Assembly: GCF_006345805.1 (NCBI RefSeq)
Contig: NC_042997.1
Location: 18,786,001 to 18,850,000 of the forward strand
Reading direction: 5' to 3'
Source: Octopus sinensis
Taxonomy: Eukaryota
DNA length: 64,000 bases
The position numbers and the translations under genes are program-made. The notes below the pieces were generated by a model. That model did not search any database, was not told the origin of the DNA, and saw nothing but the letters and a program-made list of their open reading frames with translations. Below, piece by piece: positions 10,535-61,082 of the stretch; within the stretch, counting starts at the first letter, position 1, and each line of letters opens with the position of its first letter.

Positions 10535-12221
10535 TCATCATCATCATTTAATGTCCGCTTTCTATGCTAGCATGGGATGGACGATTTGACTTCAGGACTG
10601 GCGAACCCGATGGCTGCACCAGGTTCCAATCTGATCTGGCAGAGTTTCTACAGCTGGAATCCCTTCCTAATGCCAACCACTCCGAGAGTGTAGTGGGTGC
10701 TTTTATGTGCCACAAGCACGAGGGCCAGTCAGGTGGTACTGGTAACGGCCATACGGAAATGGTGTTTTTTACATGCCACCCGCACAGGAGCCAGTCCAGC
10801 GGCACTGGCGTTGAATGTTTTTCATGGGTCACTGGCACAAGTGCCAGTAAGGCAACGCTGGTAACGATCATGCTTGAATGGTGCTTTTTACGTGCCACCG
10901 GCACTTGGTAACCTAGGTAAAAGAAGCTATCAACTATTTCTAGCTTTTCACCCTGGAACGTAGCGGAAGTTCTTCTCTGCTCATTTTCAGTATTTATTGC
11001 TCCTGAGCATCTGCCACATACAAAAACTATCTTTCCATTTAGCCTTCCTTTGATATTGCTGCACTTCTTATGTGTCCATAGCTTACATTGGGTACATCTT
11101 ATAGAGTTTCTACCTATGCCTTTTCTACAGATCAAGCAGGGCTATCTACCTGAAGGGATTTGTGGTTTGCCTGCCTTCCAACTTATTAAGACTTTGGTTT
11201 TAGCTAGGTTGACTCTAAGGCCCTTCGATTCTAATCCTTGTTTCCACACCTGAAACTTCCCCTAAAGTTCTGATAGTGACTCAGCAATTATTGCAAGGTC
11301 GTCAGCATAGAGGAGCTCCCAGTGGCATCCTGTCCTGAATTCTTCTGTTATTGCCTGGAGAACTATGATAAATAGGAGGGGGCTGAGGACTGAACCTTGG
11401 TGGACCCCTACCTTTACCCAGAATTTTTCACTGTACTCGTTGCCAGCCCTCACCTTACTAACAGCGTCCCTGTACATGGCTCGCACAGCACTCACTAACC
11501 ATTTATCTATCCCTAGTTTCCTCATTGACCACCAGGTAAGTGATCAGGGGACCCTGTCAAAGGCTTTCTCCATGTCAACGAAAGCCAGGTACAGAGGTTT
11601 ATCTTTGGCAAGGTATTTCTCCTGCAGCTGTCTTACCAGTAATATAGCATCAGTGGTGCTTTTCCCTGGTACGAACCCAAACTGCATCTCATCTAAACTG
11701 ACTCTCTCCCTAATTAGTTGGGCTATGATCCTCTCCGTGACCTTCATTACCTGATCGAAAAACTTGATACCTCTGTAATTTTTTCTACCTAAAGCATCAC
11801 CTTTTCTTTTGTAGCAGTTGACTATGGTGCTGCTACACCATTCATTGGGTATGACTCCTTTGTGTATCACCTGGTTAACTATACAGGTGACTAGGCTATA
11901 GCCGACAATGCCAGATATTTTGAGCATCTCTGCAGTGATTCCTGATGGGCCAGGGGCTTTCCCTGTCTTCATACTCTTAATTGTTTTATCTACCAAGGTA
12001 CTGTCAACTTGGATAGCTGGTCCCTCTGTTGGGTCGACACTCAGCAGACTCTCTTTCTCCCATTCATTAATTCATTTTCTTTATTGGGCAACCTTTCATA
12101 GTGGCGTCTCCAAACCTCTCTCATTGCAGCCTTGTTTAGTGCAAGTGAACCATAATCCATACAGACACATTTCTCTCCTACAACATCATGAGTCTCTCTC
12201 ACACACTGTCTTGCAACGTGA
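10535..12221 (-). mobile_element. RTE-clade LINE, 5'-truncated, with frameshifted reverse transcriptase
   Basis: ORFs 11544-11996 (KAPGPSG, NYRGI, QFGF, KAFDRVP), 11262-11525 (GVHQGSVLSPLLF, LLYADDL) and 10548-11135 (Cys/His finger, VDSFFYLG); (GAT)n tail at 10535; internal deletion near 10905. Confidence 0.92.

Positions 12222-31822: not shown

Positions 31823-31830
<8 letters not shown>
31612..31830 (+). mobile_element. Short TA-flanked element retaining the 3' half of a hammerhead
   Basis: ggcat-GAAA-cgatcg-TA at 31678-31694 (palindromic loop); the 5' core is missing. Confidence 0.4.
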
Positions 31831-31873
<43 letters not shown>

Positions 31874-32013
31874 GGGTGTGTGTGAAGAATATATTAATAA
31901 AAGGAATTCCAACCTTGTCTGATTTTCACGTTTTATTTACAATCTTATAATGATATAAGATAATATAATATAATAAAATAAAATAAAATAGAATGTTAAA
32001 TGTTCATTCTGAT

Positions 32014-32058
32014 TGAACTAGTACTTTCATGCATTAAATTCTGCAATCTTCAGATTCA
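32014..32058 (-). ncRNA. Minimal type I hammerhead ribozyme (mirror copy)
   Basis: Minus strand: tgaat-CTGAAGA-ttgca-gaatttaa-tgcat-GAAA-gtac-TA-gttca. Confidence 0.75.
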
Positions 32059-32135
32059 TGTAGTAGTGGTGACAGTCATGCTTCACAATTTTTGACAGTC
32101 AAAAATTGTGAAGCATGACTGTCACCACTACTACA

Positions 32136-32180
32136 TGAACCTGAAGATTGCAGAATTTAATGCATGAAAGTACTAGTTCA
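32136..32180 (+). ncRNA. Minimal type I hammerhead ribozyme
   Basis: tgaac-CTGAAGA-t-tgca-gaatttaa-tgca-t-GAAA-gtac-TA-gttca: stem I tgaac/gttca, stem II tgca/tgca, 1-bp stem III closed by a palindromic GTAC loop. Confidence 0.8.
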
Positions 32181-32299
32181 ATCAGAATGAACATTTAACA
32201 TTCTATTATTTTATTTTATTTTATTATATTATATTATCTTATATCATTATAAGATTGTAAATAAAACGTGAAAATCAGTCAAGGTTGGAATTCCTTTTA

Positions 32300-32340
<41 letters not shown>

Positions 32341-32361
32341 TATAATATATATTATATATAT

Positions 32362-32436
<75 letters not shown>

Positions 32437-32443
<7 letters not shown>

Positions 32444-47076: not shown

Positions 47077-47161
47077 TATAATTGTTAAACAGGACATCAA
47101 ACATTAAGGCAAGGCAAAAATCTCAAGTCATATACAATATTATAACAGGAAGAAATTCAAA

Positions 47162-47218
47162 ATCTTACAGCTGTTCCAGGGATATCCTAGAGTATGGAAT
47201 ATTCTGTCATCAGAGACA
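47162..47218 (-). ncRNA. Hammerhead motif, mutated copy (GGAA instead of GAAA)
   Basis: Minus strand: tct-CTGATGA-cagaatattcc...ggatatccct-GGAA-cagctg-TA-aga. Confidence 0.55.
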
Positions 47219-47470
47219 AATCGAGGAAAAAATATGGAATACTGACATGGATATACTCAGGATTGCACCTAAAGACTTACACACATGGATATATGCAGGA
47301 TTGCACCTAAGGACTCATGCTTTCATTTCAATAACTTTGGAAAGCTGAACTATGAACTTTTATGTCTCTTTTCTTCTCTCTTTCCATCTCCTTATTCTTT
47401 TACTCCCTTCCTCTATGTTATCATCTTATTGATATATACCATTCTCATTTTCCATATTTTTTCCCCAATT

Positions 47471-47527
47471 TGTCTCTGATGATGGAATATCCCATACTTG
47501 AGGATATCCGTGAAACAGCTGTAAGGT
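47471..47527 (+). ncRNA. Type I hammerhead ribozyme motif
   Basis: gtct-CTGATGA-tggaatatcc-catacttga-ggatatccgt-GAAAC-agct-GTA-aggt: intact core, palindromic CAGCTG, GUA triplet, short stem I. Confidence 0.75.
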
Positions 47528-47637
47528 TTTTGAATTTCTTCCTGTAATAATATTGTATATGGCTTGATATTTTTGCATCACCTTAATGCTTCACATCCTG
47601 TTTAACAATTATATATATATATGTGTATATATATATA

Positions 47638-50574
47638 TCATCATCATCATCATCATCATTTAGCGTCCGTTTTCCATGCTAGCATGGGTTGGACGGTTCA
47701 ACTGGAGTCTGGGGAGCCTGAAGGCTGCACCAGGCCAGTCAGATCTGGCAGTGTTTCTACAGCTGGATGCCCTTCCTAACGCCAACCACTCCGAGAGTGT
47801 AGTGGGTAATTTTATGTGCCATCGACACAGGTGCCAGACGAGGCTGGCGAACGGCCACGCTCGGATGGTGTTTTTATGTGCCACCGTCACAGGTGCCAGA
47901 CGAGGCTGGCAGACGGCCACGCTCGGATGGTGTTTTTATGGGCCACGCTCGGATGGTGTTTTTATGTGCCACCGACACAGGTGCCAGACGAGGCTGGCAG
48001 ACGGCCACGCTCGGATGGTGTTTTTATGTGCCACCGACACAGGTGCCAGATGAGGCTGGCGGACGGCCACGATCGGATGGTGTTTGTTACGTCCCCAAAG
48101 CACGGAGGCCAGTCTATGCGGCACTGGCTACGGCCACGTTCGGATGATTTTCTTGTGTGCCACCGGCACTGGTACCACAAAGATACAAATTCCATTGATG
48201 TTCATCTATTTTGATTTGTTTTGATTTGATTTTCACTTGCCTCAACAGGTCTTCACAAGTGTCATAAGAAGGAAGGTATGCACAGGTGGACTGACTACGT
48301 CCCAGGTAGGGGCCACGGGTTATGGCCTGACTAGTCTTGCCGGGTCTTTGGATGGTGTTTTTATGTGCCACCGACAGAGGTGCCAGATGAGGCTGGCGAA
48401 CGGCCATGATCGGATGGTGTTTGTTACGTGCCCACAGCACGGAGGCCAGTCGATGCGGTACTGGCTACGGCCACGTTCAGATGGTTTTCTTGTGTGCCAC
48501 CGGCACTGGTACCACAAAGATACAAATTCCATTGATGTTCATCTATTTTGATTTGATTTGATTTGATTTTCACTTGCCTCAACAGGTCTTCACAGGTCTT
48601 CACAAGTGTCACAAGAAGGAAGGAAGGTATGCACAGGTGGACTGACTACGTCCCAGGTAGGGGCCACGGGTTATGGCCTGACTAGTCTTGCCGGGTCTTC
48701 GGTTGGTGTTTTTATGTGCCACCGACACAGGTGCCAGATGAGGCTGGCGAACGGCCATGATCGGATGGTGTTTGTTATGTGCCCACATCACAGAGGCCAG
48801 TCGATGCGGTACTGGCTACGGCCACGTTCGGATGGTTTTCTTGTGTGCCACCGGTACTGGTACCACAAAGATACAAATTCCATTGATGTTCATCTATTTT
48901 GATTTGGTTTGATTTGATTTGATTTGATTTGATTTTGATTTTCACTTGCCTCAACAGGTCTACACAAGTGTCACACACTTGCCTCAACAGGTCTTCACAA
49001 GTGTCATAAGTGGGAAGGTATGCACAGGTGGACTGACTACGTCGCCGGGTCTTCGGATGGTGTTTTTATGTGCCACCGACACAGGTGCCAGATGAGGCTG
49101 GCGAACGGCCACGATCAGATGGTGTTTGTTGTGCCCACAGCATGGAGGCCAGTCGATGCGGTACTGGCTACGGCCACGTTCGGATGGTTTTCTTGTGTGC
49201 CACCGGTACTGGAACCACAAATACAATTCCATTGATGTTCATCTATTTTGATTTGGTTTGATTTTCACTTGCCTCAACAGGTCTTCACAAGTGTCACACA
49301 CTGCCTCAACAGGTCTCCACAAGTGTCACACACTTGCCTCTGCCTCAACAGGTCTTCACAAGTGTCACACACTTGCCTCAACAGGTCTTCACAAGTGTCA
49401 TAAGAGGGAAGGTATGCACAGGTGGACTGACTACGTCGCCGGGTCTTCGGATGGTGTCTTTATGTGCCACCGACACAGGTGCCAGATGAGGCTGGCGAAC
49501 GGCCACGATCGGATGGTGTTTGTTGTGTCCACAGCATGGAGGCCAGTCGATGCGGTACTGGCTACGGCCACGTTCGGATGGTTTTCTTGTGTGCCACCGG
49601 TACTGGAACCACAAAGATACAAATTCCATTGATGTTCATCTATTTTGATTTGGTTTGATTTTCACTTGCCTCAACAGGTCTTCACAAGTGTCACACACTT
49701 GCCTCAACAGGTCTCCACAAGTGTCACACACTTGCCTCTGCCTCAACAGGTCTTCACAAGTGTCACACACTTGCCTCTGCCTCAACAGGTCTTCACAAGT
49801 GTCACACACTTGCCTCAACAGGTCTTCACAAGTGTCATAAGAGGGAAGGTATGCACAGGTGGACTGACTACGTCGCCGGGTCTTCGGATGGTGTCTTTAT
49901 GTGCCACCGACACAGGTGCCAGATGAGGCTGGCGAACGGCCACGATCGGATGGTGTTTGTTGTGCCACAGCAAGGAGGTCAGTCAATGCGGTACTGGCTA
50001 CGGCCACGTTCGGATGGTTTTCTTGTGTGCCACCGGTACTGGAACCACAAAGATACAAATTCCATTGATGTTCATCTATTTTGATTTGGTTTGATTTTCA
50101 CTTGCCTCAACAGTCTTCACAAGTGTCACACACTTGCCTCAACAGGTCTCCACAAGTGTCACACACTTGCCTCTGCCTCAACAGGTCTTCACAAGTGTCA
50201 CACACTTGCCTCAACAGGTCTTCACAAGTGTCATAAGAGGGAAGGTATGCACAGGTGGACTGACTACGTCGCCGGGTCTTCGGATGGTGTCTTTATGTGC
50301 CACCGACACAGGTGCCAGATGAGGCTGGCGAACGGCCACGATCGGATGGTGTTTGTTGTGCCCACAGCACGGAGGCTAGTCGATGCGGTACTGGCTACGG
50401 CCACGTTTGGGTGGTTTTCTTGTGTGCCACCGGCACTGGTACCACAAAGAATACAATTCCACTGATGTTCATCTATTTTGATTTGTTTTGATTTGATTTT
50501 CACTTGCCTCAACAGGTCTTCATAAGTGTCACAAGAAGGAAGGTATGCACAGGAGGACTGACTACGTCCCAGGT

Positions 50575-55351: not shown

Positions 55352-56525
55352 TTCATCATCATCATCGTCATTGTTTAACGTCCACTTTCCATGCTGGCAT
55401 GGGTTGGACGGTTTGACTGAGGGTAGGCAAGTCAGAAAACTGCACCATCTCCAATCTGATCTGGCAAAGTTTCTACAGCTGGATGCCCTTCCTAATGCTA
55501 ACCACTCTGAGAGGGTAGTAGGTGTTTTTTACATGCCACCAGCACGATGCCAATCAGACAGTACTGGCATCGACCATGCTTGAATGGTGCCTTTTACATG
55601 CCACTGTCAAAGGAGCTAGTCAGGTGGCATTGGTAATGACCACGCTTGAATGGGGCTTTTTATGTGCCACCAGCACAGGACCAGTTGGGTAGCACTGGCA
55701 TTGACCACACTCGAATGGTACTCTTAAATGGGCTGGTTATGCCGTACTGGCACAGGCCATGGTTATGGTCTCACTTCACTACCTGGGCCTTCTCAAGCAC
55801 AGCATATCTCCAAAGGTCTTGGTCACTTGTCATCGCCTTCGTGAGGCCCAACGTTTGAAGGTCATGCTTCACCACCTCGTACCAGGTTATCCTGGGTCTA
55901 CCTCTTCCACAGGTTCCCACTACTGCTAGGGTTGACACATTTTCACACAGCTGTCCTCATCCATATGCAAGATATGACCATACCAATGCAGTCGTCTCTC
56001 TTGCACACCGCATCTGATGCTTCTTATGTCCAACTTCTTGTATCACCTGATTGACTATACAGGTGACTAGACTATAGCTGACACCGCCAGATATTTTAAG
56101 CATCTCTATGGTGATTCTTGATGGGCCAGGGGCTTTCCCTGTCTTCATACCCTTAATTGCTTTATCTATCAAGATACTGTCAATTCGGGTCACTGATCCC
56201 TTTGCTGGGTCAACAGTTGGCAGACTCTCTTTTTCCCATTCATTCTCTTCATTTAGCAACCTTTCATAGTGGTGTCTCCAAGTCTCTCTCTTAGCAGCCT
56301 CATTAAATGCAACTGAACCATCATCCATGTGGACACATTTCTCTCTCACAACACTGTCTTGCAACACGAAACACTTCAAGTCTCTTGTCCTCATGATGTA
56401 GAACATTGGCAGTTTTTATCTTATCTGTTTCTCCTCTGGCTAAGTAAACCTGTCTCCTAGCCTCTCTTCTGGCAATCTGATACAATTCCCTGCTACCACC
56501 GTTTTTCTAGTCCTTCCATGCCTGA
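55352..56525 (-). mobile_element. RTE LINE remnant with the RT core deleted
   Basis: ORF 55957-56406 (WRHHYERLLN...KAPGPSRIT...VNQVIQE) is fused to C-terminal sequence; (GAT)n tail at 55352. Confidence 0.85.
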
Positions 56526-58292: not shown

Positions 58293-58777
58293 ATTTTAAA
58301 ACATCTTGCTCTCTCTCTCCTCCCTCTCTCTCTATTTCTTTCTTTCTCTTTCTCTCTCTCTCTTATTGTTTTTTGCTGACATCTCATAATGAATTGATAA
58401 TTTAATTGCAAGAAAATAAAGCAATTTAGGAGTCAAATTATGAAGACTGAGTATACATAATCAACAAGCAGATGGTCACAATTTGAACACTTCAAATAAA
58501 TTTTTCACTAGATAAGAAAATACAATAGCAGCTATATTGTCTTTTCTTTATCTGGGATATGGTGCCATATATCTTAAATGTATCCAAAAGATTTATTCAT
58601 TATTTTGCTGTATTACATCCTTCATAAGTAGCATTTATCAATTGCTATGAGTAGAACTTTATATGAGAGTAGCAAATATGCTGTGAGCTGGATGAGTCAT
58701 CAATCTATTGCACAGACAACATTATGGTATTTGTTCTGAATTTCTGTGCTCTGAGTGCAAATTTCACTAAGGCCAGA
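58293..58777. repeat. Left arm of a ~485-bp inverted duplication
   Basis: Reverse complement of 60522-61082 with few mismatches. Confidence 0.95.
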
Positions 58778-59246
58778 CTTAAAACTTTATTGTATTTAAA
58801 ACTTTATTGTATCAATGTGCATATTCTTCAGTAATAACTTCCTTAGATGATAATTCAGAAATTCTTGTGAATATGCTGTTGATGAGGTTATAAAAAGTTT
58901 CTTTGGGTGGTTAGAGAAGTTGTTTTATGTAGTTAATTATTTTAGAGTGTTTTTTTTTTTTATATAAGAGTATTCTGGTGATCGGACAAAAAAATTTCTC
59001 ATCGAATTTCCTTACAAATTGTGAATCCCATCTTATGTATCCTATTCTTTTGATAAAGCCTTCCTTCTTATAGGAATATAATTAGACAGAGTTTCTTTCT
59101 TTAATTGAACAAACCATCTGATAAAAATTGAAGTCAAAGCCTATTTGATCTTCACAAAATACTTACCATGAGTTCTATGAAAATTTGGGATCCATGGTAT
59201 ATACTATTTCTAAAATAAAGTAGTAGAGGTAGTGGTGGTAGTAGTG

Positions 59247-59686: not shown

Positions 59687-60521
59687 GTAATTCTTACAGA
59701 TATATGAAATAGAATTTTGTTGCAATGGTTTGTGACTAGTGTAGCCAGAAGCACATAAAGGAATATATTGTTCACACAAAATTTGTGTTTGATAATGATC
59801 GAAAATCAAAAATAATATTTTTTTGATATTTCTTTTTTATTCTTTTTTATATATTTTCTTTTCAGAAAATGACAGTAAATAATCTTTGGAAAATTTGAGA
59901 AGTTAATGAGAATAGGCTAATATTACTTACAGTGTTTACTATTTGTACAAGTTTAGACAGATTTAAAAACTAATTCTATGTAGGAAAATATATTTACTCT
60001 CAGTTACAAAAGAAGAAAAAAAAATCTAAGATAAAACATAATATATGATCAGGCCTCAGATGACCATAATTTCAACTTTTATTTGAATTCCCCAGAAATC
60101 CAGAAATTCATGTGTAAATGATATCCTGAATGATATTTTGGATGACAAAAAAAACCCCTTCAAAAAACAGATTATGTGTGCTAGATGGCAGAGTAATTCA
60201 AGTCAGCTACTCATAATCACATTTGACCATGCATTCACGCACTTGCACAAGTATGTGCAGGCCTTGGCATGATATCTTGAGTAAGAGCAGTAGCTGCTTG
60301 TGCATGGAAATCTCTCTTTCCAGGTACCAATGTTTATCCAAGGAAAAAAGCTGCTGATTTGAACTGTCACTATTTGGCACCTATACTGTTACAAGCATGT
60401 AACCGAAAGTAAAATGCCACAACAGCTTCAACAAGTCAGACTGCTCAACACTTTAACAGTTCTGTCAATTCACTACTCTGGATTGTTACCTTTTTATGAT
60501 CCTCAAAAGATGAAAGACAAA

Positions 60522-61082
60522 TCTGGCCTTAGTGAAATTTGCACTCAGAGCACAGAAATTCAGAACAAATACCATAATGTTGTCTGTGCAATACATTGAT
60601 GACTCATCCAGCTCACAGCTTATTTGCTACTCTGATATAAAGTTCTACTCATAGCAATTGATAAATGCTACTTATGAAGGATGTAATACAACAAAATAAT
60701 GAATAAATCTCGTGAATGGGATATACATTTAAGATATATAGCACCATATCCCAGATAAAGAAAAGACAATATAGCTGCTATTTCATTTTTTCCTTTTTTT
60801 TTTTTCATTTTATCTAGTTTCAGGTCACGAGCTGCGGCCATGCTGGGGCACTGCCATTGTGTTTTCTTATCTAGTGAAAAATTTATTTGAAGTGTTCAAA
60901 TTGTGACTATCTGCTTGTTGATTATGTATACTCAGTCTTCATAATTTGACTCCTATATTGTTTTATTTTCTTGCAATTAAATTATCAATTCATTATGAGA
61001 TGTCAGCAAAAAACAATAAGAGAGAGAGAGAGAGGGGGGGAGCGAGGGAGGGAGAGAGAGAGAGAGCAAGATATTTTAAAAT
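60522..61082. repeat. Right arm of the inverted duplication, with a ~75-bp LINE-tail insertion
   Basis: The insertion at 60783-60858 is absent from the left arm and is flanked by ctgctatt/ctgccatt. Confidence 0.95.

Follow-up and report, generated by a model that had tools for sequence, protein, structure and literature searches.

Head-to-head pLTR stubs of a Penelope-like element in Octopus sinensis and their probable origin by twin priming on a single RNA

Insertions of EN+ Penelope-like elements (PLEs) with inverted pLTRs have been described as a head-to-head inverted, 5'-truncated copy with a tail of ~30 nt at one end only and a short palindrome at the junction, and they are accompanied by TATA/Inr-like pLTR motifs, partial tandems, a (TA)n target and a minimal pLTR hammerhead (PMC3846280, PMC8557442). 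Inverted pLTRs, one-sided tails and junction palindromes are as such PLE traits already described. Self-priming is the published proposal for the head-to-head junctions (PMC3846280), and two papers state the origin of inverted pLTRs and one-sided tails as an open question (PMC8557442, PMC11167929). A PLE of the anole, Poseidon_Ac (PAc), for which a dimer is predicted, cuts and extends both strands in vitro, with reverse transcription (RT) starting at two internal sites that bound the tail and with an uncleaved RNA as template (PMC11167929). The palindrome analyzed here shares all the listed traits of the inverted-pLTR insertions. It differs in that each arm is a stub consisting of pLTR sequence alone, that no ORF separates the arms and that both stop at one fixed point.

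The window is the whole 64,000-nt stretch of Octopus sinensis contig NC_042997.1 that was analyzed. It contains a near-perfect inverted repeat with arms at 31889-32096 (208 bp) and 32098-32308 (211 bp) and a single A (32097) between them. Two substitutions and one 3-nt indel distinguish the arms. Two (TA)n arrays (31823-31872 and 32303-32441) bracket the palindrome, and a target site duplication is unreadable inside them. A sequence-only reading had described a young but real 420-bp palindrome. We recovered the arms, the 1-nt spacer and the (TA)n setting, and the structure is real and young; only the left boundary had to be corrected, to 31873. The left arm reaches this position with a 17-nt, internally deleted remnant of the family's ~27-nt tail, while the right arm carries no tail. 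A search with 140 of the 255 filtered reading frames of the window found no host gene around the palindrome, which may still lie in an intron; these frames matched RT-related proteins only, besides two weak sub-threshold matches on one low-complexity frame. The features are the following.

31823..31872, no strand: (TA)n target, left flank
31873..31889, minus strand: remnant of the PLE tail, of whose ~27 nt an internal deletion has left 17; absent from the right arm; its end is the putative outer priming site
31890..32096, minus strand: left arm, pLTR copy from the putative transcription start to the putative inner priming site
32014..32058, minus strand: minimal type I hammerhead whose stem I contains a U.G wobble; cleavage predicted at 32019/32018
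32094..32100, no strand: centre GAC-A-GTC, where the 5' ends of two copies are joined at the putative transcription start; identical centre at 40 loci
32098..32308, plus strand: right arm, pLTR copy without tail; its end is the TTAATATAT microhomology to (TA)n
32117..32123, plus strand: internal GACTGTC, a possible pairing partner of the RNA 5' end in a small 5' hairpin; used as the junction instead at 4 loci
32136..32180, plus strand: minimal type I hammerhead motif with a palindromic AGTACT stem III; predicted cut after 32175
32303..32441, no strand: (TA)n target, right flank

By sequence comparison, the palindrome consists of two head-to-head pLTR stubs (the ribozyme-bearing end) of a PLE, each arm corresponding to the terminal ~215 nt of a 4,261-bp element with RT and GIY-YIG domains. 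The earlier suggestion of an inverted pLTR structure is thus right. When 103 nt of the right arm served as query against the genome, 1,339 candidates resulted; 40 of these were scored. Many copies run upstream through a ~400-nt untranslated region into an ORF with both domains. Over 547 aa upstream of the same arm sequence, GIY-YIG (E 5.4e-5) passes the curated cut-off, which RVT_1 (E 2.7e-6) narrowly misses. The translations contain a DKG motif, a C-x4-C-x2-C linker and a C-terminal endonuclease of the CCHH type, with CxxC between the GIY and YIG equivalents and two histidines downstream. A protein search returned 3,196 of 8,000 scored candidates at E<=1e-30, with the same domains in the top matches; the nearest named proteins among the 8,000 are from bivalves (53-63% identity). 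Several PLE-like matches (P0008, P0010, P0012, P0054, P0072, P0103, P0112) are filed under bacterial gill-symbiont assemblies and are probably host DNA within them.

Partial tandems with a spacing of ~4,261-4,285 bp occur on contigs C4, C2 and C17. In these, the boundary ACAGTC is followed by the hammerhead (+39..+83), an AT-rich stretch, TTAATATAT, the AC-rich tail of ~27 nt, another short TA run and, ~290 nt away from the boundary, an ATG. This order matches that of the arms, which identifies them as the pLTR end and the extension of the left arm as the PLE tail. Both 3' ends of the copies coincide with short TA runs of the element. With a single ORF for RT and GIY-YIG, partial tandem pLTRs, a one-sided tail and a minimal type I hammerhead, the parent has the hallmarks of an EN+ PLE and is, judged by its sequence motifs, of the Neptune/Nematis type. 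Like Neptune/Nematis PLEs as characterized in PMC8557442 (CX2-5CxxC linker, CCHH GIY-YIG), it combines a C-terminal EN, DKG rather than DKT/DKA, the linker and (TA)n targeting. At two loci of the family, L175 (G000:C2:152087500-152095000) and L174 (G000:C15:4780000-4789000), head-to-head arms of at least 2.6 kb carry a tail on one arm only, and L175 retains an open frame of 673 aa.

The hammerhead motif on the plus strand (32136-32180) comprises stem I TGAAC/GTTCA, CTGAAGA, a stem II of four pairs, GAAA, a one-pair stem III GTAC within AGTACT, and TA. That on the minus strand (32058-32014) is the same except for a C>T change that leaves the wobble in stem I. The earlier claim of a minimal, PLE-type, type I hammerhead on each strand of a pLTR sequence thus holds at both positions. 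A motif scan found both cores, together with one unrelated motif at 47476 as the only other in the window. An Rfam scan returned no hammerhead family at E<=10 and only chance miRNA-like hairpin matches below their gathering scores. Isolated arms fold no better than shuffled sequences (z +0.3 to +0.5), which is expected because the motif is minimal with a one-pair stem III, and which counts neither for nor against a ribozyme.

In the sampled genomic copies the motif is intact in 56 of 97 arms, carries U4C in 19 and another single change in 2, and has no match in 20. Changes at the level of lineages concern loop II, outside the motif, and U4. A subfamily that includes tandem copies (L171-L173) has U4C in the core (CCGAAGA), on both arms at L191, L193, L194, L198, L210 and L219.

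The same reading had also proposed that, in a transcript crossing the palindrome, ribozyme folding competes with a long hairpin. The hairpin is indeed predicted to be strong (-310 kcal/mol), but a balanced competition is not, since the predicted fold leaves none of the ribozyme stretch unpaired, and the stretch is paired already when transcription is just past it. According to the folding model the competition is one-sided, the complementary arm being transcribed first in either read-through direction, and the predicted ribozyme would be masked. A dimer route has been described for weak type I hammerheads (PMC7229834, PMC6155905), yet a dimer in cis is not available because one palindrome transcript carries a single sense ribozyme. 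If crossed by host transcription, the dozens of near-perfect ~430-bp hairpins could act as sources of dsRNA.

Non-LTR retrozymes resemble the palindrome in being short and non-coding, with a type I hammerhead and an origin from PLE pLTRs, but form head-to-tail tandems that are cut to monomers at the ribozyme (bioRxiv 10.64898/2026.07.22.740005; PMC7229834). The octopus arms are head-to-head, end away from the cut site and carry one sense ribozyme per strand, and we rejected an assignment to the retrozymes.

To define the boundaries of the copies, a 23-nt sequence immediately 3' of the ribozyme cut served as anchor; it has 647 exact matches in the genome. Our sample consists of the 80 loci that contain 97 of the first 100 matches in genome order (three on C3 were left out) and was drawn blind to upstream sequence. 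It yielded 107 5' ends, 51 of them within -4..+11 of the centre base and 8 in +12..+82; none of the 107 lies at the ribozyme cut (+74..+84). One apparent ribozyme-cut template, L104, was discarded, as it reflects a later insertion with an (AACT)n end. A different element with such an end is found inside the pLTR near ACTA sites at both L104 and L211. Solo copies have the same 5' end as palindromes. When 61 solo junctions (from the first 100 of 170 rows) were searched for a copied cap G, ACAG/ACGG was preceded by an additional G 7 times, by a C 10 times and by an A twice, a pattern that does not demonstrate such copying.

A TATA-like box is located 30-32 nt above the boundary: of 36 read-through copies, 34 have TATTTAW exactly at -32, and CCAAT occurs near -120 and -140. 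From the clustering of 5' ends and from these motifs we infer a transcription start at the boundary, and the lack of ends at the cut suggests templates that were not cleaved by the ribozyme. Although CTACAG at the boundary resembles a splice acceptor, the ends include ACAG, and splicing therefore does not define the boundary. The palindrome is devoid of the CCAAT/TATA-like region present in read-through copies, as expected if copying stopped at the putative start. By analogy with Drosophila Penelope, for which an internal promoter has been reported (PMC2377424), the palindrome may contain an internal promoter.

The sequence-only reading had suggested counting palindromic against solo copies across the genome. 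Of the 80 sampled loci, 27 are head-to-head pairs (20 short ones and 7 that reach upstream sequence or the ORF), 48 hold solo copies and 5 show partial inversions; no tail-to-tail pair was found among the 100 listed anchor places. The exact centre of the window palindrome is common to 40 loci on many contigs, with a centre base that is always A or T though any base was permitted. The palindrome might be an assembly fold-back artefact, perfect palindromes being a known type of assembly error, and the window locus is known from this assembly alone. Tc1/mariner transposons have TA targets like these flanks, so that a TA-targeting MITE with long terminal inverted repeats could be considered as well. 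Both explanations are extremely improbable: the arms differ and only one carries a tail, and the same design recurs at the 40 loci. Moreover, the family is present in independent runs, and in contigs of two of these an opposite-strand joint likewise lies at the -2 boundary (a match at the level of the family). A MITE in particular would have transposase-derived terminal inverted repeats with symmetric ends; the arms instead derive from an RT element, and the two ends of the palindrome are unlike each other.

To score the tails, 38 exact-centre loci were analyzed, of which 30 remained after 8 with one arm lacking a recognizable 3' end had been dropped. Exactly one arm is tailed in 28 of these 30 (P 9e-7), one locus having two tails and one none. 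The same holds for 25 of the 27 pairs of the unbiased sample, which has 8 loci in common with the exact-centre set. The two-tailed L183 and L201 (no tail, duplicated flank) look, from their sequences, like fold-backs at the DNA level. The centre base points towards the tailed arm in 14 loci and away from it in the other 14.

These counts bear directly on self-priming, in which antisense RNA or the first cDNA would fold back at the 5' palindrome and copy itself before the hairpin integrates. This hypothesis is already in print (PMC3846280) and has attractive aspects: the junction is a short palindrome, a cDNA end can snap back on the internal GACAGTC (-5.0 to -6.4 kcal/mol), and the arms have haplotypes in common. 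Since the centre base marks the template arm, and a copied arm cannot gain a tail that its template lacks, self-priming as formulated in PMC3846280 is contradicted for half of the loci: in 14 of the 28 one-tail loci, including the window palindrome, the tail is on the would-be copy. Self-priming could be reconciled with these loci if the centre base had somehow flipped following integration. The snap-back-type junction at the internal GACTGTC is also rare (4 loci), and the tail again lies on the would-be copy in 2 of the 3 scoreable cases. We thus regard self-priming as unlikely.

In none of the 27 pairs is a start-bounded arm joined to a long arm, against 10.4 such pairs expected. The arms diverge by 1.4% within a locus as compared with 3.2% between loci, and arms of one locus have private variants in common. 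The lack of mixed long/short pairs, the low divergence and the common private variants indicate that both arms usually derive from the same template segment. They speak against two independent RNPs acting at the two strands of one cut, for which ~10 mixed pairs would be predicted and which would not give a haplotype and private variants common to most arm pairs. In favor of such RNPs is L208, where the arms differ at three linked subfamily sites and where, from this pattern, two RNAs or a later conversion were involved. The related idea that the tail stems from endonuclease resolution, and not from a second priming site, can draw on PMC8557442, in which it is attributed to EN-mediated resolution of an intermediate, but the RT start sites observed in vitro match the tail ends (PMC11167929). 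We consider these possibilities quite improbable.

The junctions themselves vary among loci. Among the 20 short head-to-head pairs, the exact centre is present in only 8 and the others show varied junctions; several subfamily haplotypes include both orientations of the centre. Together with the solo copies that have the same 5' end, this fits palindromes that are built anew at insertion. The sequence-only reading had instead proposed an orientation-independent, non-autonomous unit that is transcribed from either side and re-mobilized whole. The exact centre common to 40 loci would be accounted for by such a unit, a one-tailed master copied between TA runs would keep the one-tail pattern, and L188 and L190 have one arm asymmetry in common, which copying of a palindrome could explain. 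This proposal is nevertheless not supported: the upstream promoter region is absent, the RNA of the unit would be the hairpin described above, both polarities within several haplotype groups would demand many masters, and neither the varied junctions nor the identical 5' end of solo copies is expected. Its probability is as low as that of two RNPs. At several junctions (L211, L201, L120, L127, L006), the filler is a repeat of the element's first 10-25 nt, and that of L211 joins at the internal GACTGTC, as if RT had annealed anew once it was at the RNA 5' end.

The palindrome was thus probably made in a single insertion, by twin priming on one uncleaved RNA. A Pol II promoter in the pLTR (CCAAT boxes, TATTTAW at -32) would start the RNA at ACAGUC, and the protein of the element would nick both strands of a (TA)n array. 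The two 3' ends would then anneal to the two short UA-rich stretches that flank the ~27-nt RNA tail, and because the priming sites flank the tail, one cDNA would be tailed and the other tail-less. Both cDNAs would pass the uncleaved hammerhead and run to the RNA 5' end, resembling strong-stop products, with one displacing the other. The 3' ends of the two cDNAs would be the same and self-complementary, reading ACTGT, or GACTGTC with a copied cap G, and could pair across a T.T mismatch, leading to GAC[A/T]GTC. The predicted duplex of these ends is weak, at -3.2 kcal/mol without the cap base and -6.0 with it (a cap-derived C). Alternatively, one RT could jump onto the other cDNA; the polarity of the centre would be random either way. 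Priming at the downstream pLTR of a tandem transcript would give the longer, ORF-containing head-to-head copies. The product would be a promoterless dead-end copy with a masked ribozyme. Several copies counted as solo (L072, L094, L111) have inverted stubs of 10-25 nt of the other end type, as expected if the second cDNA aborts. Against the scheme speak the weak duplex, the unlike haplotypes of the L208 arms, the fold-back appearance of L183 and L201 and the asymmetry common to L188 and L190.

The chemistry for this scheme is supplied by the in vitro data on PAc, which resembles the octopus element, as far as the latter can be read from its sequence, in the cutting and extension of both strands, the two internal RT starts bounding an AC-rich tail and the uncleaved template (PMC11167929). 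The two differ in that the ORF of PAc starts inside the hammerhead and the octopus ATG follows the tail, and in that PAc priming is reported without target homology, whereas the octopus starts lie at TA runs matching the target; the latter difference weighs against the scheme.

In L1 twin priming, reportedly described by Ostertag and Kazazian in 2001, both target strands are said to prime on one RNA and the cDNAs to be joined by microhomology. The second L1 primer reportedly lands far upstream and yields an inversion, while the octopus primers would be only ~27 nt apart and yield an inverted duplication.

More generally, we lean, with some reserve, towards the view that the palindromes record the PLE reaction itself, in which an RT-endonuclease dimer uses each strand of a single (TA)n cut as primer at one of the two tail-bounding sites of one RNA, and two strong-stop-like cDNAs ending at the capped start join via their self-complementary ends. 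If true, one scheme would cover inverted pLTRs, one-sided tails and PLE junction palindromes, and would replace antisense self-priming. Start-site-bounded twin priming was not found in the literature searched; supplements and subscription journals were outside its scope, and absence from print is not established by it. In this young, high-copy family, self-priming and twin priming can be told apart by counting tail side, centre polarity and arm-length pairing across the genome, and an in vitro assay can be designed around its putative exact positions of RNA start and priming.

The window contains further repeats. A second, older head-to-head pair of an unrelated family (47080-47612) has 87% identical arms, a ~210-nt spacer and both outer ends in (TA)n. 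Its hammerhead motif at 47476 (plus strand; CTGATGA...GAAA) has a palindromic ACAGCTGT stem III, and by these sequence features the pair is probably another PLE of the same design. An inverted pair at 58293-58780 and 60519-61082 (91-93% identical, ~1.7 kb apart, without hammerhead motif) possibly represents the ends of a DNA transposon. Nested tandem arrays with units of 62, 88, 351 and 394 bp, derived from a common interspersed repeat, occupy 47810-50533. Unrelated non-LTR reverse transcriptase fragments are located on the minus strand at 11265-12071 (RVT_1 E 6e-10 at 11265-11543) and at 55957-56415.
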